Shown piece after piece: positions 1,929 to 42,312 of a DNA stretch of 64,000 bases. Position numbers and translations under genes: made by a program. Within the stretch, counting starts at the first letter, position 1; the number at the start of each line of letters is the position of its first letter. The notes beneath the pieces were generated by a model that ran no database searches, had not been told where the DNA came from, and saw only the letters and a list, made by a program, of their open reading frames with translations. Source of the stretch: Candidatus Nanosyncoccus sp. (GTDB taxonomy: Bacteria; Patescibacteriota; Saccharimonadia; Saccharimonadales; Saccharimonadaceae); assembly GCA_045603805.1 (NCBI GenBank), contig JAZUMU010000009.1, positions 6,944 to 70,943 of the forward strand. The letters run 5' to 3'.

Positions 1929-2479
1929 TGACTGATTGGTGTGAACTTTCTTTAGAAAAATTAGCTAGGCAGGTCGAGACGCCGGACGGAATGATCCGGC
2001 TCTCCGGCCCCTTAGAAAGAGATAATATCGTTAATGGAGATGGCCTGAGGGCGGTGGTTTGGACCCAGGGATGCCCCAATCATTGCCCGGGGTGTCAAAA
2101 CCCTGAAACTTGGGACTACTGCTCAGGGGTTTTGATGCCGATAGAGGATGTTTTAAACCAACTCTCAACTTTTAAGGGCCAGGCCGGGTTAACTTTTTGT
2201 GGGGGGGAGCCGTTTGTCCAGGCTAAGGCTTGCAGAAGAATCGCTGATTATGTAAGAAAAGAATTCGGTTGGGATGTTTGGAGTTTTTCGGGATTTACTT
2301 ATGAGGCAATAAAAGAATTTGGCGGGGAACCTTGGGAGTTTCTAAAATCCTTGGACGTTTTGATTGATGGCCCGTTTATCATGAAGCAACGAGATTTAAG
2401 TTTAAAGTATCGGGGCTCTAGGAATCAAAGATTATTAAGATTAGAATATGGTACGGGAAAGATATTGTCTATAGAATAG
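1928..2479 (+). CDS. nrdG: anaerobic ribonucleotide reductase activating protein (radical SAM)
   Basis: TAATG overlap with nrdD. VNGDGLR is followed by the radical-SAM cluster CPNHCPGC, and there is a GGEP motif. The 183-aa size is typical. Confidence 0.85.
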   Translation: MTDWCELSLEKLARQVETPDGMIRLSGPLERDNIVNGDGLRAVVWTQGCPNHCPGCQNPETWDYCSGVLMPIEDVLNQLSTFKGQAGLTFCGGEPFVQAKACRRIADYVRKEFGWDVWSFSGFTYEAIKEFGGEPWEFLKSLDVLIDGPFIMKQRDLSLKYRGSRNQRLLRLEYGTGKILSIE

Positions 2480-2530
2480 TATAGTAGTCCGCAGCGAAAA
2501 AACTATGGGTGGTGTTGTATAATATATATT

Positions 2531-3310
2531 ATGAAGATAGCAATTTTAGGAGCTGGAGCTTTTGGGACTGCTCTTGGAGGAGTACTAGCGGAAAATGGCC
2601 ACGAGGTGGGCTATTATGATCCAGCGATAGGAAATTCATCTCTTTTAGAGGCATTGAGAGGTTCGGAATATATAGTTTTATGTGTGCCTTCTATGGTTGT
2701 ACAGGACATATTGCTTAGTTTGCCAAAGGATAGACCTCTTATTGTTGCAACAAAAGGCATATTGTCGCCTAGAATATTCGAAGATTATAAAGATTATATG
2801 GTGTTAAGTGGTCCGGGGTTTGCTAAAGATATAAAGGAACATAAAAATACTAAACTCACAGCTACGGATAAGCGTATTATAGATCTATTTAAAACTGATT
2901 ATCTAGATTTTGATCATACGGATGATAAAAAAGGGGTTTTGATGTGCGGGGCGCTAAAGAACGTCTATGCGATTTTGGCGGGAATGGAAAAAATATCCCC
3001 AAACACTGACAAACAACTTAAATTTCTTACAGAAGTTTCGGGAGAAATGAAGGCGCTGCTTTTGGCTAATGGGGCTAGACCAGAAACGGTTGACTTAGAA
3101 TGTGGTATAGGCGATTTAAGAATTACCTGTGCTCCACCATCTCGTAATTTCGAATTCGGAGTTCAGCTACGAAAAAAACCCAACTACAAACCAGAAAAGA
3201 CTGTAGAGGGTGTTCCGGCCTTAAAACGTATAAAAAATGGAGAATTAATTATTCCTAGTAGTGCGGTGAAGTTAAAAGAGTTGCTAAAAAGGAGTGAAAA
3301 ATGGGCTTAA
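2531..3310 (+). CDS. gpsA: NAD(P)H-dependent glycerol-3-phosphate dehydrogenase, short form
   Basis: Rossmann motif GAGAFGTALG, plus ATKGI, SGPGFAKDI and LKNVYAILAG. At 259 aa it is shorter than typical GpsA. Confidence 0.75.
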   Translation: MKIAILGAGAFGTALGGVLAENGHEVGYYDPAIGNSSLLEALRGSEYIVLCVPSMVVQDILLSLPKDRPLIVATKGILSPRIFEDYKDYMVLSGPGFAKDIKEHKNTKLTATDKRIIDLFKTDYLDFDHTDDKKGVLMCGALKNVYAILAGMEKISPNTDKQLKFLTEVSGEMKALLLANGARPETVDLECGIGDLRITCAPPSRNFEFGVQLRKKPNYKPEKTVEGVPALKRIKNGELIIPSSAVKLKELLKRSEKWA

Positions 3311-6300
3311 ATTCTAAACAGAAAGAGGCTGTCGAATATTTAGAAGGCCCACTTTTAGTTTTGGCTGGGCCAGGCACTGGCAAAACCCAATTGCTTTCGG
3401 AAAAAGTGGCGTATATCTTGAAGAATACTGATACTAATCCAGAAAATATTTTATGTCTTACTTTTACCGAAACTGGCGCGTCTAATATGCGCGAGCGGTT
3501 AAAGAGTATCATTGGCAAAGACGGGCTAAAGGTAAATATTGGCACGTATCATGCTTTCGGTACAGATATTCTTACTCAATACAAAAACTATGCTGAAGAT
3601 TATAATAGAAAGTTAGATTCCGCAATAGATGAAGTAACACAATTTAAAATTGTTCGCGGCATCCAGAATAAATTGCCAGGACGTGATATTCTACGCGGTG
3701 ACAATGTAAAGGATATTATCGAGGTAATATCTTCGGCAAAATCTGTGGGGCTTTTGGCAGATGATCTTAAAAGAATTGCCGAGCAGAATTTGGAAGATTC
3801 TAAAGTATTATCTGAAGCGATTTCGCCATTACTCAAAAATATTGTACCGCGTGCATTTAAGGAATCTTATGAAAAAGCTTATCGACCAATATACGAAATA
3901 CTCATAAACTACGCGGATGCACAACCGATTTTATCCGGTGTGGAGCGTTCCATCGCAGACTTAGCACGAGATTTGAAAATAGCGGTAGTAGAAGCAGAAT
4001 CTGCGGAAAAAATTAAGCCACTTTCTAGCTGGAAAGATAAATATTTCGAAAAGGACGAGAAGGGAAATTACCGACTTAAAGATCGCGTGGCTAACAAAAA
4101 ATTACTCAGCATTGCCAGGGTGATGGGTGAATATGATGACTATTTGCGAGAAAATGGCCTGTATGATTTTGATGATATGATTCAGGAGGCAGTAAGAATA
4201 CTAAAAGCTGATAATGGCTTTAAACTTACGCTGCAAGAACACTATCAGTTTATTATGTTGGATGAATTTCAGGATACTAATCCATCGCAATTTGCGATAA
4301 TCAAACAGTTGACAGACTACGAAAAGCCAATGATTATGGCGGTGGGGGATGATGATCAGGCGATTTATGAATTTCAGGGAGCGCTTTCTACAAACTTAAC
4401 AGATTTTCAGGTACATTACGGGGCAAATGTAATACCACTGGTAGAAAATTATCGTAGCACGCAGGAAATTTTGGATTTTTCACGCAAGATTATCAACCAA
4501 GCGCCGGATAGGTTTGCGGATAAGGAATTAATAGCTCATAAGCCCGCACCAGAAAAAACGCAGATTTTTCGTCATGAATTTTTAAGCTCGGACATGGAGT
4601 ATGATTTTATTGCGCGCAGGGTTCATCAGTTAATAAAAACCGGCGTGAAGCAAAGTGACATCGCTATAATTTCGTACAAAACTAAATATTTTATGCCGCT
4701 TTTGCCATACCTGAAGGCGCGGCCAGAGATAAAAATTGCTTATGAAAAGCGCGATAATTTATTTGAAGATGAGGTAATACACGAAATTCTCACTTTGGCA
4801 CGGTTTATTTATGAAATAAAGAATAATCTGAGTGGCAATACATCTATTTTGGAAATTTTAGCATATCCATTTTTTAAATTACCAATGTTGGAAGTAATAA
4901 AAGTTACTAGTGAGGCCAGAAAAGACCGCAAAGCGATATTTGAGCGTTTAAGTGCTTCGGAGAATGCGGAAATTAAGCAGGTGACGGAGTGGCTAGCAAA
5001 TTTAGTTGCAAAATCTTTTACAGAGCCACTAGAGGTAATATTGGGCTATATGATTGGTTCGACGGAATTAGACGGCTATCGTTCACCGCTTTTAGCATAT
5101 TATACGAAAGATAATGAATACGAGGCGTTCAATCTATATGAGAATTTAGCTTCGCTGAGGGGAAAACTGAGAAAGCATTTTGGCGAGAAGAGTCTAAAAT
5201 TGGACGATCTAATTGATATGGTAGATGATTATGAAGCTGCCGAAATGACACTAAATAAGACTAGCCCATATAAAGATGCAGATGAGGCCGTACAAATACT
5301 AACTGCACATAAAGCTAAGGGGCTCGAATTTGAATATGTTTTTATTATATCGGCAGACCATGTGGCATGGGGCAAAGGTAAGGGAAACAACAACTTATTG
5401 GCTCTACCGAAAAACTTAATGCAGATACGGCATACTGGCACCACGGACGGTGAAAAACTACGTATACTATATGTGGCATTAACGCGGGCGAAAAGTACAC
5501 TATATATTACGAATTCTTTGCATGATTTTAATGACAAAGCGCCGGATAGATTAGAATATCTCGAAGAGTATACAGATGGTGACGAGGTATTTTCGCCATT
5601 AATTCCGGCCGGAAAAGTAGATTGCCACTATGAATCAAGCGCGTCCGTTTCTTCCGACAAAACAGAGAATTTAAGGCATTGGTTGGCGCCATATACCAAG
5701 CTAACGCCCGATATGCGAGCAATTTATCGGGATAGAGTGAAGAATTGGCGGATGTCCGCATCGAGCTTGACTTCGTTTATAGATATCGTATATGCTGGCC
5801 CAGTGGAGTTCTTTAAGCGGCAAATTCTGCGTGCGCCGGCAGAACCAGAAACGGAAGCTTTGGCTTTTGGTGATTTGGTGCATAAAACTTTTGAGATGGT
5901 AACCAATCGAGGTTTTTCTGACGAAAAGGCGGTAGAATACTTTTTAGCGGAACTTGAGAAAAAGGAGTTACCACAAGATATTATGCAAAAAATCCGCGAA
6001 AAGGGCCCGGCTGATCTTGCAGTTTCACTGAATAAATTCGGGGAGATTTTACGCCAGGGTAAGGCGGAAGTAAACCTTGCGTCGGAGAAATTATCTATAG
6101 ATGGTGTACCAGTAACTGGCAAAATCGACCATATATTGATAGATGATAAGGCTAAAACGATTGAGACATATGATTTTAAAACTGGTGGCTATCATAAGGA
6201 AAAATGGCGTTCGTATGCGACATTATATAAATATATGTTGCAACTGGGGTTTTATAAATTACTTTTAAATAATTCTCTGGCTTATAAAAAATATAGGGTG

Positions 6301-6897: not shown

Positions 6898-7107
6898 ATG
6901 GCAAAGAAGAATAATACTAAAAGAAAACTTGTTGGTCTAGTTTCTGAAGAATCTGGTGTACGTGCGTATTATACCAAGAAAAATACTATGAATACTCCAG
7001 ACAAGCTTAGCCTTAGGAAGTACGATCCCGTACTTAGAAAACATGTTTTGTTTGTTGAGACTAAGAAGAATTTAGGTCGCAACGAGGTTAAAGAGAAGAA
7101 ACGCTAA
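6898..7107 (+). CDS. rpmG: 50S ribosomal protein L33
   Basis: MAKK... YYTKKNTMNTPDKLSLRKYDPVLRKHVLFVETKK matches the L33 core pattern. It has a lysine-rich C-terminal tail. TGnTAGAAT lies 10 nt upstream of the ATG. Confidence 0.8.
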   Translation: MAKKNNTKRKLVGLVSEESGVRAYYTKKNTMNTPDKLSLRKYDPVLRKHVLFVETKKNLGRNEVKEKKR

Positions 7108-29547: not shown

Positions 29548-30411
29548 TTATTCGTCAGTCGGTGAATATACGGAATCTTTACCTATAATGCCTAAATTAA
29601 GTTTTTCCCCGCCGACTGCTATCTTTCCATTTTTCATGGGTTCAAAATATTTTCCGTCAGGGTATTTTGGCGAGAAGAGTTCCGGCACCATAATAATAAA
29701 TGGAACCGGCCCCCAACTATCTTGCTTCATCGATAGTTGTGCGTAACCGTATATTCCATAGTTTTCTATGTCATTGGAATAGAATACTTTCCAAATGTAA
29801 TCTGTTTTACTATTAGAATCGGGCAGCCAGATAAGACTTACTGAGCTGCTTCTTGGATTATCACTGCTTATGCTCCATCCATCGGTGATGTTATTTACCT
29901 TAAACTCTCCGATACAATAGTACATATCAGTCATTTCAGCCATAAAACCTGAGCCTATAAGGTTATAATTCTGATAGTAATTATTTAAAGTAGTTGCCGT
30001 ACTTAAACCCCAATCGTCAAATCCCGGCAATGATTTCCCATTGCTAACTTTTCCCCATGCAGCGTTAACGGTGTCGGTATTGGATAATAGTATCCAAGGG
30101 CTGAATTTCATGCTTACTTCAAATGTGTAGCCATCGCTATCTTCGTGGGTATAAGAAATTTCAGTCCAATCTATATCAATGGATGGAGTCTCTGTTGGCG
30201 CTTCTGTAGGCTTTTCTGTTGGTTTTGCGGTCGAGATTTCTGTGGCTACTTCAATTATATTATCGCTTGTTATTTGAGGTTGATCGATTTCGTTGCTAAT
30301 CGTATTGTCAGCTGAGTTACAACTGGTAAAAGATATGGTCATTATTATAGCGATTAATAATGATAATACCTTTTTTAGGTTCCTGTTTTCAGTAATGTTT
30401 ATTCTTTTCAT
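29548..30411 (-). CDS. lipoprotein, function unknown
   Basis: Signal peptide with lipobox ISFTSC, then a Thr/Pro/Glu-rich linker (KPTEKPTEAPTETP). Confidence 0.65.
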   Translation of the reverse strand: MKRINITENRNLKKVLSLLIAIIMTISFTSCNSADNTISNEIDQPQITSDNIIEVATEISTAKPTEKPTEAPTETPSIDIDWTEISYTHEDSDGYTFEVSMKFSPWILLSNTDTVNAAWGKVSNGKSLPGFDDWGLSTATTLNNYYQNYNLIGSGFMAEMTDMYYCIGEFKVNNITDGWSISSDNPRSSSVSLIWLPDSNSKTDYIWKVFYSNDIENYGIYGYAQLSMKQDSWGPVPFIIMVPELFSPKYPDGKYFEPMKNGKIAVGGEKLNLGIIGKDSVYSPTDE

Positions 30412-30432
30412 TTTGTTTCCCCTTAGATAATA

Positions 30433-31092
30433 TTACGGTCTTCTCTCTCCGCAGCCGCAGGTTCCGACGTAGACTGAGTTCACTTTGCCGCAAGAGGGAC
30501 ATTGCCATTCGTCTGCGCCAACCGCAGCATTTCGGTTTGGCTGAAGAATTGTTCCCATATGTTTTGGTGTACCACAACCGCAGGTGGTAACGTAGGACGG
30601 ATTGATCTTCAGACACTGAGGGCATTGCCATTCCGGACCTGCAGCTGAGCGTGTGGAGCTTTTTGTATCCCTCGGCTTCGATTCGCCGCACTCGCACTTT
30701 GACATAAGCATCGCGTTCATACGTCCGCATCTCGGACATTTCCAGCCTTTAGCTGTTTCGTTTTCTATAGGCTTGGCGTGTGATAATTTGGTGGTAGGCT
30801 GATGCACAAGCTCTCGCTCAAGATTTTGAGCGCTGTCTACAAGCTGACCGAAGCCGTAAAGCACATAGGTGCTGACAACCGAGATGATCGAGCCGAGAAT
30901 GATTTTTAAGATACCGCCCCATACGGTCACTCCCTGTACACCGGCGATTACGTTTCCGTAACTTGAAGCATACTTGCCCAGCTTCACGGCGTTCACAATG
31001 TCGATTATACCTAAAATGACACTGGCGATGATTCCTGCTACTGCAAGAAAGCTTGCTAAACCTTTGATTTTGTTTCCAATGTTTTCGTACAT
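30433..31092 (-). CDS. membrane protein with three C-terminal zinc-ribbon repeats
   Basis: Three TM spans, then three repeats of W[KQ]CP[RQS]CG...C.CG. SD is AGGAGG. Confidence 0.65.
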   Translation of the reverse strand: MYENIGNKIKGLASFLAVAGIIASVILGIIDIVNAVKLGKYASSYGNVIAGVQGVTVWGGILKIILGSIISVVSTYVLYGFGQLVDSAQNLERELVHQPTTKLSHAKPIENETAKGWKCPRCGRMNAMLMSKCECGESKPRDTKSSTRSAAGPEWQCPQCLKINPSYVTTCGCGTPKHMGTILQPNRNAAVGADEWQCPSCGKVNSVYVGTCGCGERRP

Positions 31093-31165
31093 GATTTTAC
31101 CTCCTGTGTTTGATAATTATTATTCAGCTCACACGAGTGAGCAAAAGGTCTTATTGATTTATTTC

Positions 31166-32140
31166 TTATTCGCTTGCTATCATCGATCCGTCTGATCCGT
31201 AGCTTATATTGTAAGATTCGCCTTCATCATCCTCAGATAGCTTCACAGTTATTCTTTGAACCAATCCTTCTTCATCTCTTTCAAATTCATAGATACGCTG
31301 GTTTTCGTCCGAAAGGTGCATTATACCGGATGTTCTGAAGCCATTGGCGTCATAATGAAATTCGAGCCTTGCTTGTTCGATGTGTTCATTATTACCATTA
31401 CCGCTGTCGACACCTTTTAAGTGCAGTTCGTATGTAATCTGATCCGCTGCACCGTCTGTGTTATATGAATAATGAGTGTGGCTGAATTGAGAACAGTTAT
31501 CCTCTTCAAAACGATGGTTTACATCGTACAAAGCGTCTTCTGAAAATCCTACGGAACCGTCATTAACGTCTTCTTTTGCAAACAGATTGACAGCCGATAT
31601 AGATTGGTCGTTGTCATATTCGAATGTGACAACGTAAGAGGTATTAGCAAAAAATAATCTTTCGATTCTACCATCGGTTGCGGTAATGACGCGATAAACG
31701 CCAAAATCACCGGCTTCGTCAGCGTGTTTTGTTATTCGAAGTTCGGATAAAGTATATCCGTTTTCCGGTTGCGACGAGGAGTCTTCTGTTAATGGATTAA
31801 GCAATCCTATAGGCGGATAAAGAGAATTCCTCGTCCCCGTTCCATAAAGCAAATACTCATAAGGAGATTCGTATGTAGACTTATATTGAATCAATACCAT
31901 ATTCTGATCTAATTCGTAAAGGCGAAAGCAGTATAAGGTGTTGATTTCCAAGCTCAGCGATTTGTCGAAATAACTTTTTACCTCAGACATTTCCGTCATA
32001 CCGGAGAATAGATTTTGTATATAGGGTTCGTTTGTGTTGCTCTGAGAATCGTTTTCTGTAGTTTCGGGTGTATTCAAGGAGCACCCTGTCATAAGGATTA
32101 TCAAAACCAAAGATATAAATGCTGTAAAGAATCTACTCAT
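31166..32140 (-). CDS. lipoprotein with YD/RHS-like short repeats
   Basis: Start MSRFF at a TAATG overlap with the upstream gene. Lipobox LMTGC. Motifs YNTDGAADQ, YDANGFRT and YGSDGSM. Confidence 0.65.
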   Translation of the reverse strand: MSRFFTAFISLVLIILMTGCSLNTPETTENDSQSNTNEPYIQNLFSGMTEMSEVKSYFDKSLSLEINTLYCFRLYELDQNMVLIQYKSTYESPYEYLLYGTGTRNSLYPPIGLLNPLTEDSSSQPENGYTLSELRITKHADEAGDFGVYRVITATDGRIERLFFANTSYVVTFEYDNDQSISAVNLFAKEDVNDGSVGFSEDALYDVNHRFEEDNCSQFSHTHYSYNTDGAADQITYELHLKGVDSGNGNNEHIEQARLEFHYDANGFRTSGIMHLSDENQRIYEFERDEEGLVQRITVKLSEDDEGESYNISYGSDGSMIASE

Positions 32141-33077
32141 TATTCTTTCTTCCTCCATTCCGGATTAGATGATACTACTGTTCCGTCAGATGAATAAAGG
32201 ACGTCATAAGTTGTACAATAACAGGACGGTCTATTCTTATCAAATGGATTTTGTTCGGAATATATTCTATTTACCGTTCCATCATTATTCCGATAATACT
32301 CAACATATTCTGTTTTATACTCTGTATCATCGTATCCTTGTTGAAACATATGACTTTCCCTAAGTCCGTCTTGGTCATAAGTGTACGTCACTGTCCAATG
32401 CCAATGATTGTTTTCGCTAATGGCTGATTGAAGAGTTCCGTCCGAATTGTAGTAAAATTTTATATATACGTTAGCGTTATCAAATGTTTTTGTCATATCA
32501 AACGCTTTATCGGACTTGGTTTTATAGTATGTGTTTATCTCGGAAATAGTATCATCAGAGTTATAACTAAAGCATGTGATTTCAAGCAACAGGTCGTTTG
32601 ACGGAGCATAACGTAGTATTCTTTCATACTGATCTTTAACAATATAAAAATCTGTATAATCAATTAATTTATTATAGTAATTAGGATACGATAGTTTTGA
32701 TAGGGTGTACTCATTATCGTCAACAGTTTGGTGTGACAACACTGTTTCTGTTATATCATCAAAGTATCCTTTATATGATAAAGCATATACAGAAGCGCCT
32801 CCGTTGTATCCAATATATTTTATTGTTGAAGTTTCTGTTTCACGATACTGAATAATGTCAAAGTTGTAGCCAAACAGATATGAATAATCATAAAACCGAA
32901 AAGAGTACAGTTCATCTATGCGTAAAAGCAGAGTTTTATCAAAATAGTTATATACTTCCGATAAATCGGATACAACAGAAAAACGATTTTGGACCCTTTT
33001 GGTATCTGCGTTGTCAGAGCAAGCAGAGGTAAAAACATAAAACAGAAAATCAATAATAATGCTGTTATCTTCTTCAT
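32140..33077 (-). pseudogene. paralogous lipoprotein gene with an apparent 1-nt frameshift in the signal-peptide region
   Basis: GGAG-ATG MKKITALLLIFCFMF is in one frame. The lipobox FTSAC and the rest of the protein are in another frame. That part includes LSEVYNYFDKTLLLRIDELY, homologous to the downstream paralog. The switch lies within T-runs at 33031-33049. Confidence 0.6.
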
Positions 33078-33114: not shown

Positions 33115-35316
33115 CTAATAGTTGCGTATGTATTCAATCAATGAAGATTGGTTAACAAGGTTTTCGCTCTTTATACGATCCCAATTAAACGCGTCGTCAG
33201 ATGATGATTTGTATTCTTCTTCACTGACTTCTTCGTCGTTGATTTTATAATAAGTTGTATAACCGGATGAATAATCATCTACATCCATTGTGCCGTTTTT
33301 AGTTACATAACATGAATCACCATCGAACATCAGGAAATGCCATCCGCTGTTCATCATCCCTCCTATATATGAAAACAATTCTCCGGTTTTTTCTCGATAT
33401 GTAAACACTCCTGCGGCGATCTCTTCGTTCTGAACGGTTCCATCTTCTATCCAGCATAGCTGATAAACACTTGCGTGAGCTCCGGTATCTGTGTGTATAA
33501 TCAATTCAGGCATGTCATCATCATTGATATAAAACAATTCACCGGAAAAATAAGATTTTTCCATACTATTCAGATAGTCTATATAGAGCTGTTTATAATC
33601 AGTTGTCTCAATAGAATTGGTTACAGGTTCTATTGGAGGGTCGGCGTTTTCATCTGCTGATTTTGTAACCGCAGGCAATTCGGGTATTCTATTGGTACTG
33701 CGGTAAAGCGTCCAATAGGATTTGCCGTCTATTACCTTTTCCGATACCTCAACGTAGTTGGTTTCAAGCACTCCGCCGGAATAATAGCTTGCTGTTCGGT
33801 CATACACAATGTAATACTTGTTGCCGTCATATCTGACGGTTTTGTAAGTCAACTGATAGCCGGGATCGCCAATCCCGCTGAGTCTGTTGTATAAATATTT
33901 CTTCCCGTCCAGTTCGTATTCATATAAGTATTGACCATGCTGGGGAGCAAACTGGCTTTTGTCTGCGCTCAAAGTAGCTTGCAGCATGTTGCTACACGTT
34001 TCTTCAGGTATATTAAGGATGTTATGCATCGCCCACAAGACCTTATCTTCATCAAAGGCGACATAACCATAATCATCGTACATCTTAAGAGGATCAGAAT
34101 TTACAGTCCAGTCTTCCAGTGCTGATTCTCCCGGATATATAGTCAGATTGAGGCAAGAAGGATGGCTTGCTATCATACCGACTAATTTGTCATAAATATT
34201 ATCGAGGTTGTTGCAGTCATAGTCTCTTACGCTCTCGCCTTCGCCGCCGGTATAGGCAAAGTTAAATTGATAAATAAACTGGTACATGCTGTCGGGAAGC
34301 TCAGACGGATCAACATCCACTACGGTGGGAGCTTCTGTAGGAGCGACGGTTTGCGGCTCCTGTGACGCTTCTTCCTGTGCTACAGCGATTGCTTCGGTTG
34401 CCTCGGTATTATCCGTTTTAGGATTCGTTATTGTCTTCCACGCGAATACTCCGCCGCCCGCGACTAATCCGATTGCAACGACTCCGGCTGCCAGCTTTCC
34501 CCACAGCGGAAAGGATGCCTTTGCCGCTACAGCCGCGTGCTTTGCTGCGCCTGTTGCTGTACGAGCTGTGTTGGCAACCGCATGAGCAGCGCTTGTTTGT
34601 CCGACAGGAGCGCTAAATAAGGCATTGTTGATCTGACTGTATATACCGGCAGCTGTTTTTGCTGATATTCCGCTTTTTTGGATTTGCCGGATGAAAACGC
34701 CAGCAAAGGGGATAAGCGCAACTCCTGCGGCGCCGTAAAACTTCTCTCCGGTTTTCTTCTCCTGTTCCTCAATCTCAGTACGGATTGCTTTGCGGGCAAG
34801 AAATAGTCTTGATTTTACCGTACCTTCTGAGCAGTCCATGATTTCGGCGATTTCTTCGATGCTCATTTCGTTAAAGTAATACAGCAGGATGGTTTCTTTC
34901 TGTACAACTGAGAGTTCATTAATAATCTTTCTAAGACGGCTTGAAAGATCGTCTCTCTCGGCGTATTGCTCCGGCAACAGTAGATCGGATTCGATCTGCA
35001 TGACTTCGCCGTCCTCGCTTTCGTCCTCAACAGACAGATTCGGCTTACTTCTGCGGAGCAAAGAATTACATTCATTGATAGTGATCCGCTGCAACCACGC
35101 GTTGAATGCGGCTGGATTATCCAGCTTATCAATATTCTGCCAAGCCTTAACAAAGGTTGTTTGTAGTATATCCTCTGCGTCGGCAGAGTTTTTGACTGTC
35201 ATTTGCGCCAGCGCATATATCTTTTCAAAGTACAGTTTGTACAACTCTTCAAAAGCATTCGTGTTCCCGTTCTTAGCGGCAAGCACCAATGCTGTTTCGC
35301 GATTTTTATCTGACAT
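33115..35316 (-). CDS. sigma-70 family (ECF-like) sigma factor fused to TM segment(s) and a large C-terminal extracytoplasmic domain
   Basis: Region 2 (FEELYKLYFEKIY, DILQTTFVKAW, AWLQRITINE) and region 4 (EIAEIMDCSEGTVKSRL). Hydrophobic spans follow (LWGKLAAGVVAIGLVAGGGVFAW), then about 430 aa. Confidence 0.75.
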   Translation of the reverse strand: MSDKNRETALVLAAKNGNTNAFEELYKLYFEKIYALAQMTVKNSADAEDILQTTFVKAWQNIDKLDNPAAFNAWLQRITINECNSLLRRSKPNLSVEDESEDGEVMQIESDLLLPEQYAERDDLSSRLRKIINELSVVQKETILLYYFNEMSIEEIAEIMDCSEGTVKSRLFLARKAIRTEIEEQEKKTGEKFYGAAGVALIPFAGVFIRQIQKSGISAKTAAGIYSQINNALFSAPVGQTSAAHAVANTARTATGAAKHAAVAAKASFPLWGKLAAGVVAIGLVAGGGVFAWKTITNPKTDNTEATEAIAVAQEEASQEPQTVAPTEAPTVVDVDPSELPDSMYQFIYQFNFAYTGGEGESVRDYDCNNLDNIYDKLVGMIASHPSCLNLTIYPGESALEDWTVNSDPLKMYDDYGYVAFDEDKVLWAMHNILNIPEETCSNMLQATLSADKSQFAPQHGQYLYEYELDGKKYLYNRLSGIGDPGYQLTYKTVRYDGNKYYIVYDRTASYYSGGVLETNYVEVSEKVIDGKSYWTLYRSTNRIPELPAVTKSADENADPPIEPVTNSIETTDYKQLYIDYLNSMEKSYFSGELFYINDDDMPELIIHTDTGAHASVYQLCWIEDGTVQNEEIAAGVFTYREKTGELFSYIGGMMNSGWHFLMFDGDSCYVTKNGTMDVDDYSSGYTTYYKINDEEVSEEEYKSSSDDAFNWDRIKSENLVNQSSLIEYIRNY

Positions 35317-35460
35317 TATGTACATCCCCCTTAGCTTTTCACTACATAGACGCAGAAACTTTTCATTTGGTTTAATGATTTTTAAATTTTTTCTAGAAAT
35401 AGTTTTAAAAATGCTTTATGTCTCTATAATGCCATATTCTCGTATGATAAACTAATATTG

Positions 35461-36063
35461 ATGGGAGGTAGGTTGAGATTAGATAAAACTAAGCGCAATC
35501 GAAAGTATCAATACAATAACCGGATAATCCAAAAAGTGATAATAGGATTAAACAAATCCCATCGGTGGCATATCACATTAAAACAGATAATCAATAAGAC
35601 TAAGCTGACAAAGCATACTTTATATTCTCATTACCCTGATATTGATAATGCTCTGAACACAATAGAGAGCGAACTGATTCATGAGTATAAGGATGAAATA
35701 TCACACGGGACAGCATCTTTAGCAAAAATCGTTCCGGATAAAAACCGGCGGTTGTTTTATATCACGATGCTGCATATGTCAAAGAATAAGGATGTTTTTA
35801 TAGCTGTCTGTGATGATATCGCTAACTATACATTACTGTATAAAATGATTGAAGAAGTGTATCCTATGCTTGATATCACTTGGTTTCCATTAAGTTCTCC
35901 CGCTCCAAGCGTCGGCAATGAAAGAGCAGATATGTATATCAGTATGTGCGTGGAAATACTGAGTAAATGGGGATATAAAACAAGTTGTAATATTCATAAA
36001 GCTGATAGATACATAAACAGGTTATTGCGAATCACATCGGATGCTTCCATGAGATGTAGATAG
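35461..36063 (+). CDS. TetR-like HTH transcriptional regulator (weak call)
   Basis: N-terminal ITLKQIINKTKLTKHTLYSHYPDIDNAL resembles the TetR HTH. Divergent from the sigma gene. The start is uncertain (ATG 35461 or TTG 35473). Confidence 0.45.
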   Translation: MGGRLRLDKTKRNRKYQYNNRIIQKVIIGLNKSHRWHITLKQIINKTKLTKHTLYSHYPDIDNALNTIESELIHEYKDEISHGTASLAKIVPDKNRRLFYITMLHMSKNKDVFIAVCDDIANYTLLYKMIEEVYPMLDITWFPLSSPAPSVGNERADMYISMCVEILSKWGYKTSCNIHKADRYINRLLRITSDASMRCR

Positions 36064-36280
36064 ACGTTTATTAGGAGAAAATAACTGCCTAAAATTCCCG
36101 ATGTAACATTTTTATTATGTTGTAAACTACTATACCATAATATATATAACTTTTCAAGAAAATGGTCTGCATTTCATTAAACAAATCCACACGACCTCTA
36201 TAAAGTATACATAGTAAATGCGCTTCGGATTTGGGAAATGTTCATAAATAAATGTAACAAAATAATAAGAATGTTAAATT

Positions 36281-36326
36281 CCCCTTATCCAAGTGCGGTA
36301 CAATGTACGCAAACTTGAATAAGGGG
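36281..36326. promoter_or_regulatory. 46-nt imperfect palindrome immediately upstream of the tyrosine recombinase gene
   Basis: CCCCTTATCCAAGT-GCGGTACAATGTACGCAA-ACTTGAATAAGGGG. 13 of 14 outer pairs match, and the spacer has an inner dyad GTACA-A-TGTAC. It ends 14 nt before the ATG. Confidence 0.4.
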
Positions 36327-36339
36327 TTGTATATTAATT

Positions 36340-36906
36340 ATGGCAAAAACCGAACCTATACGCGACAAAGAACAGATAAAGGCTTTAGCCGATTACTTTT
36401 TGAAACAAGGTCAAATGAGAAACTATGTCATGCTGATCATGGGAATATACACGGCTACAAGGATCAGCGATTTGTTGAACCTGAAATGGGATGATGTATA
36501 TAACCCGATAGCCAAATGCTTTCGTCAGCATTTGATATTGTTTGAACATAAGACCGGCAAGCGCAGAGCTATAGCCATTAATGAAAAGGTGGTTCATGCC
36601 CTGAGTATATATATGCCTTGCCGTAAAAGCGAATATATCTTTGATAACGGACGCGGCAAACCTCTCAGCCGCGTTCAGGCGTGGCGTATCATGCACGATG
36701 CCACTAAGGAGATGGGGATTGAAGATACCATAGCTTGTCACGGGCTGAGAAAAACATGGGGATACCATGCTTGGACAAGTCAAGCGGTATCCCCGGTAGT
36801 CATTATGGATGTTTATAATCATAGCAGCTATGATGTCACAAAGCGCTATCTCGGAGTAGAACAGGACGATTTGGATAAGGCATATTTAGGGATGAAGCTC
36901 GTCTAA
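36340..36906 (+). CDS. small tyrosine recombinase (phage-integrase catalytic domain only)
   Basis: ATRISDLLNLKWDDV (Arg I), HGLRKTWGYHA (H-x-x-R) and NHSSYDVTKRYL (catalytic Tyr). Only 188 aa. Confidence 0.8.
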   Translation: MAKTEPIRDKEQIKALADYFLKQGQMRNYVMLIMGIYTATRISDLLNLKWDDVYNPIAKCFRQHLILFEHKTGKRRAIAINEKVVHALSIYMPCRKSEYIFDNGRGKPLSRVQAWRIMHDATKEMGIEDTIACHGLRKTWGYHAWTSQAVSPVVIMDVYNHSSYDVTKRYLGVEQDDLDKAYLGMKLV

Positions 36907-39336
36907 ATCTTGATTTGTGAGCGTTATACCTTTTGGCAGTGCTATAGAATACCATCTGTCTTCATTGCTATAAAGGTAATATTCTAACTGTTTTATCGTG
37001 CTTTGGTAGTCTCCCTCTAACAAGATGTCAATAAAGTAGTAAGCATACTCATTTAGATTATAATCATTTATAGAGGTTACTATTTTTATGTGATTCTTTT
37101 CTACGTTTTGTGCTCTTTCTGCAGTGCTTTCATTTTTATAGTCTCTATAAACTATACTTCTACCAAGCATGCTGGATATCTCTTTCCAGAAGATAGTTTC
37201 TTCTTCTAGAATGCTCTTTGGAAAATCGAACTTAATCTCAACTTGATAAAACAGCCTTGTCATTCTTTCGTGAATTGATTTTGATGCTTTGATTAATTCT
37301 TCATTTCCAAACGGGATTATTCTATTTAATATGCGAGGTTGAAATGCAGAATATCGCAAGATTAAAATATAATCAGCTGCTGCGTCGGTGTTTATAAAAT
37401 GAAAAGTAGAGTTTATATGATACAAATAATCACATAAATCGTATTCTTGGTATTTTTTTGATAATTCTTTGTCTCCGTATGTACTATATAGATTAGAAAT
37501 CCTCGAAAAGCTATATTCTGCATGTCGCCAACTCTGTTCATATGGTGATGTGCTTTCAACTATTATTTTTCTTAATAATTGATGCATTATGAGTTTTTCC
37601 CCATCCCAATTAATTAACGAATAGTCAGTTAGTTTTCTTATTAATTCATGACGGCTAAGCTCATTATCAAGTGCAACTAATAAAGGGGATCGTTCTTCAA
37701 TAATTACTTTCCCTTTATAATAATCCTTAGGCAATGTTTTTGCAGTAATACGCGTTTTAGCAAACCTGCCATTACCAAGATAATTAATATAATTATATAG
37801 TTCAACTTTATTTCCATTATTAATATCTATGGTTTCAATAATACAGCTCTTTCCGTTTTTCGAACATTCAATAACGCATTTGATTCGTTGTTTCTCTCGA
37901 AATTTGAGGTCATCTAAAAATGACTCTAAAGGGAGATAATCTTCACCGAAAAACGCACACACTTTAAGTAACTCTTCAATAGTATTATATTCTGTACAAT
38001 TACTTTCTTTCAACCTATTCAGTGTGATTCTAAATGTTTGCAATATTGTTTTTTCTGAATAGCTTTTTAGATTAAGCAGTTTTAAACCAGAGCTATTTAT
38101 AAATAATTCTAAATACTTATCATATGAAATTTTGTTTACGGCAATATAACTTGATACATAGTCTAAGGCTAAAGGCAAGTAACCTAATTCCTGAACTAAT
38201 AGCCTACAACTATCATTAACTTTTAGCCCGGTTTTTATCTCCAAATAATTGGTTGAGAGTTCTGGATCAAATACATCCAATCTTATTCGTTTTGTTCCGA
38301 TTAATTCACGGTCACATTGTGTAGTGACTATTATATGACAATTATTCACAGTTAAAATATCATGAAACCATTGTTTTTGTAAAACTCCTTCCGCAGACTC
38401 ATCATTCAGATAATCTACATTATCCATAACCAACAGAGTACTCTTGCTATTATTTATAAATCTTTTGAATAATACTATGATCTCTTTATCAGAAAAACAA
38501 TCTATATTAGAGGTATTGTCTTCAAGGCTTTCCAGCAAAAACCATTTACACTCCTGTATTATGGAAGAGGCACTTTTAGCGTTGATCCAAATAATAGTAT
38601 TATATTCAGTTTTATGTAAATACAAGTATTGTAGAGCAAGTTGAGTCTTTCCGGAACCTCCCATTCCGCATATTAATTGTATCTGGATATTATTGAGGAA
38701 ATTTTCCTCAATTATTTTTAATTCGTTTTCTCGACCGCAAAAATCCAGATTGCGAGCACGGTTAACATATATTATTTGTCTGTTGGTTTTTCTTGCATAT
38801 ACCATATAAGATGGATTTGGATATAAAACTGGATCATGAGTTGATTCCTTTAGATTCATGATATATTTTCTGCAAGCCTGATCAATGTAAGATTTTTTAT
38901 CGGAAATAGAATCAAAAAATTTGCCCATATCATTACAAATCTCATCTTCCCTGATTCTTAACGCATCTGCTCTGGATTTTTGTTGCATAACAGTCAGTTT
39001 GTTAAATGGCTGTTTATATATGAATTCTTTATTATAGTTTTCACGTTGTTCTAAATAATACTTTCGTCTTTGCGTAAGATCTTTACCATATTGATATCCT
39101 TTTAAAAGTCCCCATGCACAGAGAATTATATCTGCTTGTTCACTTGTCTTAAAGCAATCTAAAACTAAATAAATAAAAAACGATTTGGCTTCTTCTAGAC
39201 GAAAATACCTACTTTTCTCTTTTTTTATATCTTCATAAGAGATTCTTCTATATATCTCTTGAACTTTCTCAATATATCGACAATCTCCACGCAAGGCTTG
39301 TAATATACTACCGATGTTAACATTTCTTTTATTCAC
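36886..39336 (-). CDS. NB-ARC-type STAND NTPase with unknown N- and C-terminal domains
   Basis: FCGRENEL...ICGMGGSGKTQLA (P-loop), LLVMDNVD (Walker B), IIVTTQ, and GYLPLALDYV (GLPL motif). GTG start with GGAG upstream. AT-rich. Confidence 0.8.
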   Translation of the reverse strand: MNKRNVNIGSILQALRGDCRYIEKVQEIYRRISYEDIKKEKSRYFRLEEAKSFFIYLVLDCFKTSEQADIILCAWGLLKGYQYGKDLTQRRKYYLEQRENYNKEFIYKQPFNKLTVMQQKSRADALRIREDEICNDMGKFFDSISDKKSYIDQACRKYIMNLKESTHDPVLYPNPSYMVYARKTNRQIIYVNRARNLDFCGRENELKIIEENFLNNIQIQLICGMGGSGKTQLALQYLYLHKTEYNTIIWINAKSASSIIQECKWFLLESLEDNTSNIDCFSDKEIIVLFKRFINNSKSTLLVMDNVDYLNDESAEGVLQKQWFHDILTVNNCHIIVTTQCDRELIGTKRIRLDVFDPELSTNYLEIKTGLKVNDSCRLLVQELGYLPLALDYVSSYIAVNKISYDKYLELFINSSGLKLLNLKSYSEKTILQTFRITLNRLKESNCTEYNTIEELLKVCAFFGEDYLPLESFLDDLKFREKQRIKCVIECSKNGKSCIIETIDINNGNKVELYNYINYLGNGRFAKTRITAKTLPKDYYKGKVIIEERSPLLVALDNELSRHELIRKLTDYSLINWDGEKLIMHQLLRKIIVESTSPYEQSWRHAEYSFSRISNLYSTYGDKELSKKYQEYDLCDYLYHINSTFHFINTDAAADYILILRYSAFQPRILNRIIPFGNEELIKASKSIHERMTRLFYQVEIKFDFPKSILEEETIFWKEISSMLGRSIVYRDYKNESTAERAQNVEKNHIKIVTSINDYNLNEYAYYFIDILLEGDYQSTIKQLEYYLYSNEDRWYSIALPKGITLTNQDLDELHP

Positions 39337-39679
39337 AAGGGTTCATCTCCAGTAAGAGTACTAAAAGTATTATAATTATCTAGAGGCGAGACTTCAAGTG
39401 ATATTTCATAATTGATTATAAGTTTATTACTCAAATGGTTGAATTTCGATATGGTAAATCAGCATCAAATATACCTCTATTGCGAAAACACGTGTTGAAA
39501 GCATATTGTTGTATGATATTGACAAAATAAAACATCTGTGATATAATTCTTATATAGAATTATAGATTGATTCTATAGTACTTTTATAGGTTAAAAAGAG
39601 CATCTCAGATCATTGTCGAATTCGCTTATCACAAAATCATGATAAGCGATAAAGCAATGATCATATGGAGGTGTTCAAA

Positions 39680-40249
39680 GTGAAAAAAACATATAAGAAT
39701 TATTGTGAAGACTGCAATACCAGTTGCAAAATGATTAGCGGAATTAAAAATGTGCCTGTTGAAATGATCGAGACATTATCTGATTGGCAAGATAAGCAAA
39801 CTCAAGATATGTTTAGAAAGATGACTATGATCTTACAGGGTGACATTGAAAAACATATTAATGTCGAACCTGTATTTGCTCAGAAGCATCAAGAACTTGA
39901 TTTTGCTAGTGTCTTACTAGGGAATCATCCCGAATGGGAACTAGTAAAAGCAGAAGTTTATCTTGACGGAATACTATTCTATTATTATCAGTTCGATATT
40001 AATAAAGATAAAAGAGTTCAAGATTGGCTTATCATTAGCCTAGAAACACCTCAAGATATAACTCTGTATCTGAACATAGAAAAAGATCAAGAACATCCCG
40101 CTTTAGTATATCGAATAAGGATGAAGGAAACAGCAAGCACAAAAACAGAAAGCATCACAATAGACTATTATGTTAATAACAATAAAGTTCGGTTCTCTTC
40201 ACTCGAAAGCGATGAAGAAGGAGTATATGAACTTATTGTTGAAATCTAA
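39680..40249 (+). CDS. hypothetical protein (189 aa) divergent from the STAND gene
   Basis: GGAGGTG lies 6 nt before the GTG at 39680; the track start at 39665 is also possible. AT-rich like its neighbour. A strong terminator follows. Confidence 0.6.
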   Translation: MKKTYKNYCEDCNTSCKMISGIKNVPVEMIETLSDWQDKQTQDMFRKMTMILQGDIEKHINVEPVFAQKHQELDFASVLLGNHPEWELVKAEVYLDGILFYYYQFDINKDKRVQDWLIISLETPQDITLYLNIEKDQEHPALVYRIRMKETASTKTESITIDYYVNNNKVRFSSLESDEEGVYELIVEI

Positions 40250-40254
40250 TCTCG

Positions 40255-40281
40255 AAATCCCGCTGCCCGCGGGATTTTTTA
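40255..40281 (+). terminator. rho-independent terminator
   Basis: AAATCCCGC-TGCCC-GCGGGATTT followed by TTT. Confidence 0.65.
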
Positions 40282-40414
40282 TGCTAGAATATGCTGTTTT
40301 ATGTTTTGACCCAAAACGATTGCAATTATTGTCTTGATGCAGTAAAATGAGCGCGAGCTCAATAAATAATACAAAAAACAAAGTCCCGGCGCCGAGACGG
40401 AAAGGATTACAATT

Positions 40415-41736: not shown

Positions 41737-42312
41737 ATGTCGAAACATAAAATCGAGAAAGAAGCACCGACTAACTATCGTGTGCCGAAAAATATTCCTG
41801 ATATCCCCAAAGCTACTACTATACTCTGCGATTATCCTTGGCCTAAGCATCAAGGGGGGCGACTCGGAGCTATAGAAAAATACGACCTTATGTCCATGGA
41901 ACGTATTTTGAAATTCCCATTAAAAGACCTTGCAGCAGATAATTGCACACTATGGTTGTGGACGACAAATGCTTGTCTGCCGGATGCCATACGGGTCATT
42001 GAAGAACAGGGGTTTTCATACCGAGGATACTATGTGTGGTGTAAAGCTAAACTAGGGCTCGGTTCTCAATATCTCCGCCAATGCACAGAGCTATGCGTCG
42101 TGGCGACACGCGGAAAAGTCAAGTTCAAAAATCACTCCCAAATGAACTGGGGAATCATGCCGACAACCATACATAGTGAGAAGCCGAGAGAATTCATTCC
42201 GATTATAGAACGTTTGTGCGACCCTCCGTATATGGAACTCTTCTGTCGTAGGCGCCCATCTAGCAATCAGGAATGGCTGTGTTGGGGATCAGAGACTGAG
42301 GGGGGGCAGTGA
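41737..42312 (+). CDS. MT-A70 family N6-adenine DNA methyltransferase (orphan)
   Basis: ILCDYPWP (DPPW variant), LWLWTTN, and HSEKPREF (HSxKP). Confidence 0.8.
   Translation: MSKHKIEKEAPTNYRVPKNIPDIPKATTILCDYPWPKHQGGRLGAIEKYDLMSMERILKFPLKDLAADNCTLWLWTTNACLPDAIRVIEEQGFSYRGYYVWCKAKLGLGSQYLRQCTELCVVATRGKVKFKNHSQMNWGIMPTTIHSEKPREFIPIIERLCDPPYMELFCRRRPSSNQEWLCWGSETEGGQ

Follow-up and report, generated by a model that had tools for sequence, protein, structure and literature searches.

An NB-ARC gene of the STAND class (signal transduction ATPases with numerous domains) is carried as exchangeable cargo in a conserved slot with sharp edges, within a mobile element on contig JAZUMU010000009.1 (assembly GCA_045603805.1, Candidatus Nanosyncoccus sp.). 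The stretch analyzed, hereafter the window, spans 64,000 nucleotides (contig positions 6,944 to 70,943, forward strand). The host element is of the integrative mobilizable or conjugative type and belongs to gut and rumen Clostridia. The gene encodes a nucleoside triphosphatase (NTPase) of 816 amino acids (aa) that diverges faster than the element backbone, in domain-mosaic fashion, and the N-terminal domain of this protein represents a previously undescribed small all-helical family that is invariably fused to a STAND NTPase. On balance, we lean towards the NB-ARC gene being a self-contained, single-gene defense or conflict sensor. A preliminary description of the window, made from the letters alone, had proposed an undescribed defense module consisting of this gene and a divergently transcribed 189-aa open reading frame (ORF). 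The NB-ARC identity, the novelty of the N-terminal domain and the presence of a retron in the same slot of a relative speak for that proposal, whereas the two-gene unit does not stand, and a search with the defense-system models of PADLOC returned nothing. The comparison set comprises ~15 related loci, with ~10 independent loci, a small sample, for slot content; loci and proteins are referred to below by L and P numbers.

A variable cargo slot in a mobile element

The slot, its contents and the features that delimit it are as follows.

36886 to 39336, minus strand: NB-ARC (AP-ATPase clade) STAND NTPase gene, 816 aa, GTG start (ORF, Pfam, NCBIfam, AlphaFold2, Foldseek)
36895 to 39517, no strand: variable cargo slot of 2.6 kb, with the NB-ARC gene and its own promoter region (DNA homology breakpoints, differing content)
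39369 to 39397, minus strand: candidate promoter of the NB-ARC gene, TTGAAG, 17 nt, TATAAT, 10/12 (consensus scan only)
36340 to 36906, plus strand: tyrosine recombinase of 188 aa, catalytic domain only, at the left slot edge (Pfam Phage_integrase, E=9e-25; weak FimB/FimE-type invertase matches)
39519 to 39547, plus strand: promoter of the 189-aa gene, TTGACA, 17 nt, TG-n-TATAAT, 12/12 (invariant in the window, L006, L001/L004 and L092)
39680 to 40249, plus strand: 189-aa ORF, GTG start at 39680 (ORF, homologues, breakpoint)

Both edges are defined by the points at which DNA homology to related loci breaks off. On the left, homology to L099 and L100 (97%) and to L006 and L095 ends at 36887-36894, at the recombinase stop. 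L099 and L100 match the window at 92–97% DNA identity from the sigma-factor gene through the recombinase, stop matching at 36894, and carry beyond that point a convergent gene unrelated to any family member. The NB-ARC gene and the recombinase overlap convergently by exactly 21 nt (36886-36906), as first described. On the right, the window again matches L006, L092 and L095 from 39518-39519, at the -35 hexamer of the 189-aa gene promoter. This promoter, TTGACA-N17-TGTGATATAAT with an extended -10 element, is invariant across loci whose 189-aa-type proteins share only 23–48% identity. The candidate promoter of the NB-ARC gene falls within the variable slot and for that reason is not conserved in relatives.

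Slot contents differ among loci. In L092 the slot holds a complete type I-B retron (ATPase-Toprim_I-B, E=9e-152 over the full length; RT_I-B, E=2.5e-88), in DNA of 25–29% G+C directly upstream of the conserved promoter of the 189-aa homologue. Type I-B retrons are a known anti-phage defense system. Elsewhere, the slot carries divergent, domain-mosaic NB-ARC alleles. The retron occupies L092 positions 1121-4283, with a DUF932 gene on one side and the 189-aa homologue's promoter on the other. The AT-richness reported at the outset is confirmed: G+C content is 30.9% in the NB-ARC gene, 29% in the intergenic region and 33% in the 189-aa gene, versus 40% in the whole window. These sequences had been read as one 3.4-kb block acquired by secondary insertion; AT-rich cargo on a mobile element is indeed present, but the slot measures 2.6 kb and excludes the 189-aa gene.

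Gene order is common to the window, L001-L004, L006 and L095, and runs from a relaxase (Replic_Relax), a coupling protein, a small ORF and an MT-A70 gene through three or four small ORFs to the ~190-aa ORF, the divergent NB-ARC gene and the convergent 188-aa recombinase. The recombinase is absent from L001-L004, and the L095 contig ends inside it; it recurs beside the slot in L005, L006, L087, L088, L095, L099 and L100. A TetR-like gene of ~200 aa comes next in L001-L004 and L006, and a sigma-factor fusion is found in L006. In addition to the relaxase and coupling protein, the element encodes an MT-A70 methylase and two large serine recombinases; no mating-pore ATPase is seen in the scanned part of the element. 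IME_Rho_tet (10.7 kb, MobC, tet; PMC12904643) was considered as the element family and rejected, as its gene content is different. The MT-A70 gene (41737-42312, plus strand, upstream of the coupling protein) encodes an orphan MT-A70/type II-like DNA methyltransferase (PADLOC MTase_II, E=9e-35) without a visible restriction partner, a pattern typical of the anti-restriction methylases of transferable elements.

Similar to the hotspots of integrative and conjugative elements (ICEs), integrative mobilizable elements (IMEs), P4-like satellites and pipolins, the slot combines conserved flanks with interchangeable, unrelated AT-rich cargo that includes a known defense system. This general pattern has been described (PMC10201445, PMC9122126, PMC11551731). 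However, unlike the known hotspots, this slot has a small invertase-type recombinase with a putative invertible promoter at one edge and an invariant consensus promoter at the other. To our knowledge, this particular hotspot has not been described previously. A slot with edges defined in this way offers a handle for mining further cargo and defense genes in these gut mobile elements, which are abundant.

Comparison of the window with L006 illustrates how unevenly the element evolves. Amino acid identity is 91% for the relaxase, 87% for the coupling protein, 75% for the recombinase, 50% for the TetR-like protein and about 47–48% for the 189-aa protein, and 38% for the NTPase, the last over aa 1-475 only, where the tblastn match stops. 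The mosaic pattern emerges from two other relatives: P0004 shares 53% identity with the window protein in the N-terminal domain and 30% in the nucleotide-binding domain (NBD), and P0003 shares 23% and 44%, respectively. Full-length relatives are rare, with three among 5.8 billion proteins (31–39% identity) and two more in species-representative genomes, and all are located on related mobile elements. Taxonomic hints come from relatives in one Ruminococcaceae metagenome-assembled genome (MAG) and one rumen MAG. A database protein, P0001, is identical to the window product, and a copy at ≥90% identity (P0163) is present in at least one other sample. A relative of ~700 aa is encoded in L007 and L008 on a shorter element that has two serine recombinases and lacks the relaxase and coupling protein.

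The sub-clade of P0003 and P0139 has a distinct arrangement, in which the NB-ARC gene is followed by large co-directional genes without Pfam or PADLOC matches, coding for 1039 aa in one locus (L005 2662-5781) and for 641 and 176 aa in the other (L090 4412-6915). These genes might be true partners or effectors of those alleles.

The NB-ARC protein and its N-terminal domain family

The domains of the 816-aa protein are, from the N-terminus:

38752 to 39336, minus strand: N-terminal all-helical domain, aa 1-195 (phmmer, AlphaFold2, conservation)
38062 to 38751, minus strand: NBD and helical domain 1 (HD1), aa 196-425 (Pfam, alignment, model, motifs)
38644 to 38667, minus strand: P-loop GMGGSGKT with K230 (motif position)
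37537 to 38061, minus strand: winged-helix region, aa 426-600, with a variable beta-hairpin insertion at aa ~498-547 and MHD-like IMHQLL (model, alignment, motif)
36889 to 37536, minus strand: C-terminal ~215 aa (model, identity to relatives)

The protein is a genuine AP-ATPase/NB-ARC STAND NTPase. The motifs on which this identification originally rested are present, namely GMGGSGKT (aa 224-231), LLVMDNVD (301-308), IIVTTQ (335-340) and GYLPLAL (385-391), together with an FCGRE box (199-203) and the MHD-like IMHQLL (583-588), and Pfam, NCBIfam and Foldseek concur. Pfam NB-ARC (PF00931) matches at E=6.8e-7, and its 29.2 bits exceed the gathering score of 23.5. In NCBIfam FxSxx_TPR (NF040586), the NTPase part matches aa 194-474 at E=4.4e-37, with a score of 128 bits that is far short of the family cut-off of 300. 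Pfam NACHT gives no match on the window protein, for which NB-ARC is the best model; weak NACHT matches occur in 2 of 44 family members. In a PDB profile search the top match is the plant NOD-like receptor (NLR) Roq1, and AfsR is marginal, matching in the P-loop region alone (E=0.06).

AlphaFold2 modeling from a 44-sequence alignment gave a mean predicted local distance difference test score (pLDDT) of 81; a run on four sequences had produced a good core with poor termini (pLDDT 60). Foldseek searches of the PDB with the 816-aa model place Apaf-1 (1z6t) first (E=2e-9, TM-score 0.50 normalized to the target), followed by NRC3/NRC4, Sr35, CED-4 and an archaeal STAND protein with tetratricopeptide repeats (TPR); E values of the top matches range from 2e-9 to 1e-7. 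In the model the NBD spans residues 200-355 and HD1 residues 358-422. Although the last ~430 aa were initially regarded as unrecognized, residues to ~600 belong to HD1 and the winged-helix domain (WHD), and only the C-terminal ~215 residues are unassigned. This C-terminal part consists of a helical bundle (residues ~600-724) and a low-confidence tail (residues 734-795), is the most divergent portion of the protein (23–27% identity to relatives) and is presumed to be a sensor or regulatory region. Neither Pfam nor the AlphaFold2 model reveals repeats after the winged helix. A homology search with the C-terminal 322 aa retrieved no protein, its own parent included, and is therefore uninformative as to whether this part is unique. 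An invertible C-terminus was also considered for the NTPase and rejected: no convincing shufflon or inverted repeats flank the NB-ARC gene or lie inside it, and the real inversion is found upstream of the recombinase.

Alignment of four sequences shows that P-loop residues G224, G227, G229, K230 and T231 are invariant. The Walker B motif, LLVMDN, retains D305, and its second acidic position is N in all four aligned relatives. Sensor I reads TTQ in the window protein versus TTR in P0002 and P0003 and TTH in P0004, and the His of the MHD-like motif is retained in three of the four relatives. Because of the DN in Walker B and the TTQ at sensor I, the ATPase cycle of the window protein may be atypical; its residues are compatible with nucleotide binding, and hydrolysis is uncertain.

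The N-terminal domain forms the first module of the proteins in a STAND family, and repeat sensors are present in the more typical of its members. A phmmer search with residues 1-195 against 1.84 billion representatives retrieved 42 proteins, and the domain is N-terminal in every one. Among 44 aligned family members, Pfam identifies NB-ARC in 20 and AAA_22 in 17, and a few distant members end in Sel1 or TPR repeats. Residues ~10-160 are modeled as all-helical with pLDDT >90. The family signature is AKaFlI..La.D...SDIVLCAWGLL.GY...T.RR.KYL.E, followed by a P.PSY linker, and D69, L77, R90, R91 and P175 are invariant. The first ~190 aa are as unrecognizable as they had appeared from the sequence, with no match in Pfam, PDB sequences or PADLOC. 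This result extends to 23 family members, for which the domain finds no match in Pfam (E up to 1) or in PDB-sequence profile searches (E up to 10). A helix-turn-helix (HTH), which the preliminary description had named as the outcome that would mark the protein as a transcription regulator, is among the domains not detected by Pfam on the 23 members or by the PDB profile search, as are SARP and LuxR domains. In the model, the helices around the conserved RR are parted by a 12-residue loop, unlike an HTH turn, and basicity is inconsistent, with an isoelectric point (pI) of 9.3 in the window copy and a family median of 7.7. Fold searches with both full-length models, twice against the PDB and once against BFVD, were dominated by the NTPase core and were uninformative for the N-terminal domain, and a JGI metagenome scan with the domain returned a single 1-kb contig.

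Among characterized proteins, the window protein most resembles Apaf-1, CED-4 and the plant coiled-coil (CC) NLRs. These share with it the NBD-HD1-WHD core and its P-loop, GLPL and MHD-like motifs, along with a Walker B motif that in the window protein reads DN, provide the best structural matches, and have the same layout of a helical N-terminal output domain, an NTPase and a helical domain. As in CED-4 and Apaf-1(1-591), there is no repeat sensor in the window protein. However, no sequence test identifies its N-terminal domain as CARD or CC, and unlike Apaf-1 and the plant NLRs the protein is bacterial, resides on a mobile element, has a beta-hairpin insertion in the WHD and a TTQ motif, and lacks WD40 or leucine-rich repeats. 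By sequence, the closest relatives of the NTPase module are FxSxx-COOH/NB-ARC-TPR proteins of Actinomycetota and Chloroflexota, hundreds of which are 25–32% identical. Unlike the window protein, which has no TPR, these carry long TPR arrays, and their N-termini are TIR, HTH or none.

Function of the NB-ARC gene

The view that the gene is a single-gene defense or conflict sensor, which we hold to be somewhat probable, is favored because its AT-rich exchangeable slot is shared with a retron, because it evolves fast and as a mosaic, and because it is carried by a mobile element. ICEs and IMEs commonly carry defense systems (PMC10201445), and 198 of 589 STAND clades are defense-associated (PMC13581612). 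By analogy with Avs, bNACHT, Apaf-1 and plant NLRs, recognition of a phage or rival-element protein would fall to the short, divergent C-terminal region, either directly or through a bound host factor. Binding would release autoinhibition and permit ADP-to-ATP exchange at the P-loop (K230), and oligomerization through the NBD, HD1 and WHD would then cluster the N-terminal domains to give the output. Since no catalytic signature is seen in the N-terminal domain, this output would most likely be non-enzymatic, acting through the membrane or protein-protein contacts to arrest growth or kill the cell. Like Avs and bNACHT, the gene codes for one large STAND protein in which an output domain at the N-terminus precedes the NTPase and a variable C-terminal region, and it is fast-evolving, AT-rich mobile-element cargo in a slot shared with a known defense system. 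Unlike Avs and bNACHT, the window protein belongs to the NB-ARC clade, contains no nuclease, SIR2, TIR or protease domain, has a C-terminal region of ~215 aa versus ≥400 aa, and matches no Avs or bNACHT hidden Markov model (HMM); P0002 has only a marginal Avs4 match in the P-loop region (E=3e-4).

Several observations weigh against a defense role. First, no model in PADLOC (2023 release, predating Avs7-21) matches the window protein or its close relatives, a check that the preliminary description had proposed. Second, the region after the winged helix is only ~215 aa long and has no repeats, and defense STANDs typically have sensors of 400 aa or more (PMC13581612); defense and non-defense clades are, moreover, interspersed in the STAND phylogeny (PMC13581612). 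Third, the replacement by a retron is seen on a single 7-kb contig, on which the wider element is different, and the orphan MT-A70 methylase is the sole other known defense gene in the element of the window. Fourth, Pfam and PDB sequences reveal no nuclease, SIR2, TIR or protease effector in the N-terminal domain, a scan of viral contigs did not find the N-terminal domain family, and the ATPase cycle may, as noted above, be atypical.

It is possible, albeit unlikely, that the NB-ARC protein is instead the element's own signal-sensing regulator in the style of MalT, AfsR or GutR. Binding of its N-terminal domain to DNA or to a transcription factor would then activate the divergent transfer or mobilization operon. 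STAND transcription factors exist (PMC13581612), and MalT, AfsR and GutR share the STAND NTPase core, a gene divergent from a controllable operon and regulator neighbors. The NB-ARC gene is always divergent from a long operon that ends in serine recombinases, its neighbors are a TetR-like protein, a sigma-factor fusion and an invertase, and its N-terminal domain lacks a catalytic signature and is basic in the window copy. However, the searches for HTH, SARP and LuxR domains described above detected none, the family median pI is 7.7, and unlike in MalT, AfsR and GutR no DNA-binding domain is detected in the window protein. The genetic context points the same way. The neighboring promoter and its palindrome are kept in L092, where a retron replaces the gene, and the NB-ARC gene diverges much faster than the backbone. 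L099 and L100, whose backbone is 97% identical, carry an unrelated gene in its place; thus, the element does not need the NB-ARC gene, which is dispensable for the backbone.

The two-gene module put forward in the preliminary description, in which the NB-ARC protein and the 189-aa protein would act as sensor and effector, inhibitor or adaptor, is improbable in light of these comparisons. A divergent ORF of ~190 aa does lie beside the NTPase in the window, L006 (48%), L095, L096/L097 (HMM E=8e-7) and L001 (by position, 23%), both genes are AT-rich, and an NTPase without a large sensor recalls CED-4, which is controlled by a separate protein. Nevertheless, the two genes are not obligately together, which, if co-occurrence is understood as obligate, is an outcome that the preliminary description had named as refuting the module. 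The 189-aa homologue occurs without the NTPase in L092 (48% identity, with conserved promoter and leader) and in L093, and relatives of the NTPase have unrelated upstream genes in L007/L008 (118 aa), L088 (58 aa), L090 (297 aa) and L098 (175 aa). The right-hand breakpoint assigns the 189-aa gene to the backbone, and the gene, with a promoter and terminator of its own, forms a separate unit of transcription. Unlike STAND systems of several genes linked by EAD or Death-like adaptor domains (PMC7159879, PMC8195603), the NTPase has no adaptor in common with its neighbor: hhalign gives a probability of 0.2% for a domain common to the N-terminal domain family and the 189-aa family, on which an EAD-type adaptor was rejected, and no EAD or Death-like Pfam match is found. 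The 189-aa gene is therefore a backbone gene heading a conserved small-ORF block and not a partner of the NTPase, and the two co-occur frequently because they flank the same slot. If the NB-ARC gene proves to be an ordinary uncharacterized STAND gene, the main lasting result will be the negative one, that the two-gene module does not exist. A DUF6926 match of the 189-aa protein (E=0.016) was not reproduced in any homologue and is taken as chance.

With a similarly low probability, the protein may sense inter-element conflict or helpers, detecting the proteins of a co-resident conjugative element or plasmid in order to exclude a rival or to time mobilization. The family is found only on such mobilizable or conjugative elements and not in viral contigs, its C-terminus diverges fast, and the element encodes a relaxase and coupling protein with no mating-pore ATPase in the scanned part, such that it may need a helper. 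Against this, the slot also accepts a retron, a phage-defense system. Furthermore, all bacterial STAND sensors characterized so far detect phage proteins (PMC13581612).

Finally, decay of the NB-ARC gene into non-functional cargo is very improbable: although sensor I has changed from R to Q, Walker B reads DN, the G+C content is very low and the last ~80 residues are modeled at low confidence, the ORF of 816 codons is intact where stop codons would easily arise, at least one other sample (P0163) holds a ≥90%-identity copy, the remaining motifs are intact, and the N-terminal domain is predicted with high confidence.

Control of the 189-aa gene and a putative invertible switch

Two further sets of regulatory features flank the slot. 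Those on the right belong to the 189-aa gene.

39553 to 39577, no strand: palindrome TATAGAAT-N9-ATTCTATA, candidate operator (overlaps the expected transcription start; position conserved in relatives)
39600 to 39674, plus strand: structured 5' leader of the 189-aa gene, 75 nt (folding, covariation)
40254 to 40281, plus strand: intrinsic terminator after the 189-aa gene (10-bp stem 40254-40278 and U-run; -16.2 kcal/mol, z=-3.6)

The GTG start at 39680 lies 7 nt past a GGAGG, and an identical 189-aa protein is present in databases (P0121). The leader folds at -30.7 kcal/mol (z=-6.2) into three stacked stems, the basal one of which pairs with the GGAGG ribosome-binding site. RNAalifold analysis of three loci identifies 8 pairs with compensatory changes, and single mismatches are G.U on the sense strand. 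Equivalent leaders are located at L006 9702-9795 (minus strand), L001 9702-9790 (minus strand) and L092 ~4690-4786. An Rfam scan of 35.0-41.5 kb yields nothing near any gathering score. Together, the promoter, palindrome and leader point to very tight, multi-level control of the 189-aa gene, with an origin-of-transfer (oriT)-type hairpin as an alternative interpretation of the leader. The divergent ORF and the strong terminator behind it, both part of the initial account, are confirmed, the terminator by the folding energy listed above. Past this terminator, the minus strand contains two terminator-like hairpins (40348-40398), and no minus-strand gene ends there; their role may be bidirectional insulation of the small-ORF block.

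The second set lies to the left of the recombinase.

36112 to 36268, no strand: putative invertible segment with a 143-bp core at 36119-36261 (inverted repeats 36112-36127 and 36252-36268; opposite orientation in L099)
35458 to 36063, plus strand: protein of 201 aa with a weak TetR-like N-terminal HTH (PDB-sequence TetR matches to residues 32-79, E=0.13)

Comparison of the window with L099 reveals that the core is identical at 143 of 143 positions to L099 (3550-3706) in reverse complement, between flanks that are 97% identical, and L100, like L099 a metagenome contig, also has the segment in the opposite orientation with 143/143 identity. The segment is bordered by imperfect inverted repeats of 16–17 nt, TTATTATGTTGTAAAC and, as reverse complement, TTATTATTTTGTTACAT, and the recombinase starts 79 nt from it. 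A consensus scan locates a promoter-like site within the segment, TTGAAA-17-TGgTATAGT, on the minus strand (36157..36129). In the window orientation this site faces left, antisense through the TetR-like gene and towards a minus-strand sigma-factor operon. Its orientation in L099, L100 and apparently L006 is towards the recombinase and then the convergent cargo gene, with no terminator between. As in Fim-type invertible promoter switches, a small tyrosine recombinase gene adjoins a segment that has inverted repeats at its ends and occurs in either orientation. Thus, judging from sequence comparison, the 143-bp segment is probably a phase-variation switch of the Fim promoter type, and the 188-aa recombinase is a probable invertase.

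It is conceivable, though we consider it unlikely, that the locus combines two further novelties. The N-terminal domain would be a new executioner domain that is activated by NB-ARC oligomerization, as are the CC domain of the resistosome and the CARD of the apoptosome, in what would amount to a compact, minimal NLR of anaerobic Firmicutes. The slot would be phase-variable, the promoter, once flipped towards the recombinase, running antisense into the cargo and switching the mobile element's immunity ON or OFF reversibly. Bacterial NLR-like sensors are under very active study, yet those characterized are nearly all from Proteobacteria and have enzymatic effectors. The present family comes from gut and rumen Clostridia, belongs to the Apaf-1/plant-NLR clade, and combines an unrecognizable yet confidently folded helical output domain with almost no sensor. 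The N-terminal domain family could therefore reveal a new output mechanism or CED-4-like control.

The remaining observations concern the surroundings of the invertible segment. Homologues of the 201-aa TetR-like protein are encoded in L006 (50%) and L001 (30%). The leader of the recombinase gene contains a long, conserved hairpin, in the window (36281-36326) CCCCTTATCCAAGT...ACTTGAATAAGGGG, and in the relatives L006, L005 and L087, CCCCTTATCTTAGT...ACTAAGATAAGGGG; its left arm is partly complementary to the recombinase 3' end at 36871-36888, exactly at the slot boundary. Further left, the gene at 33115-35325 (minus strand) codes for a sigma-70/ECF-type (extracytoplasmic function) sigma factor with a C-terminal extension of ~550 aa, giving 736 aa overall. 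This gene is the first in a series on the minus strand (the others at 29548-32742), one of which codes for zinc-ribbon repeats, and the series may be a cargo operon under the putative invertible promoter. L006 encodes a similar sigma fusion, with DUF6273.

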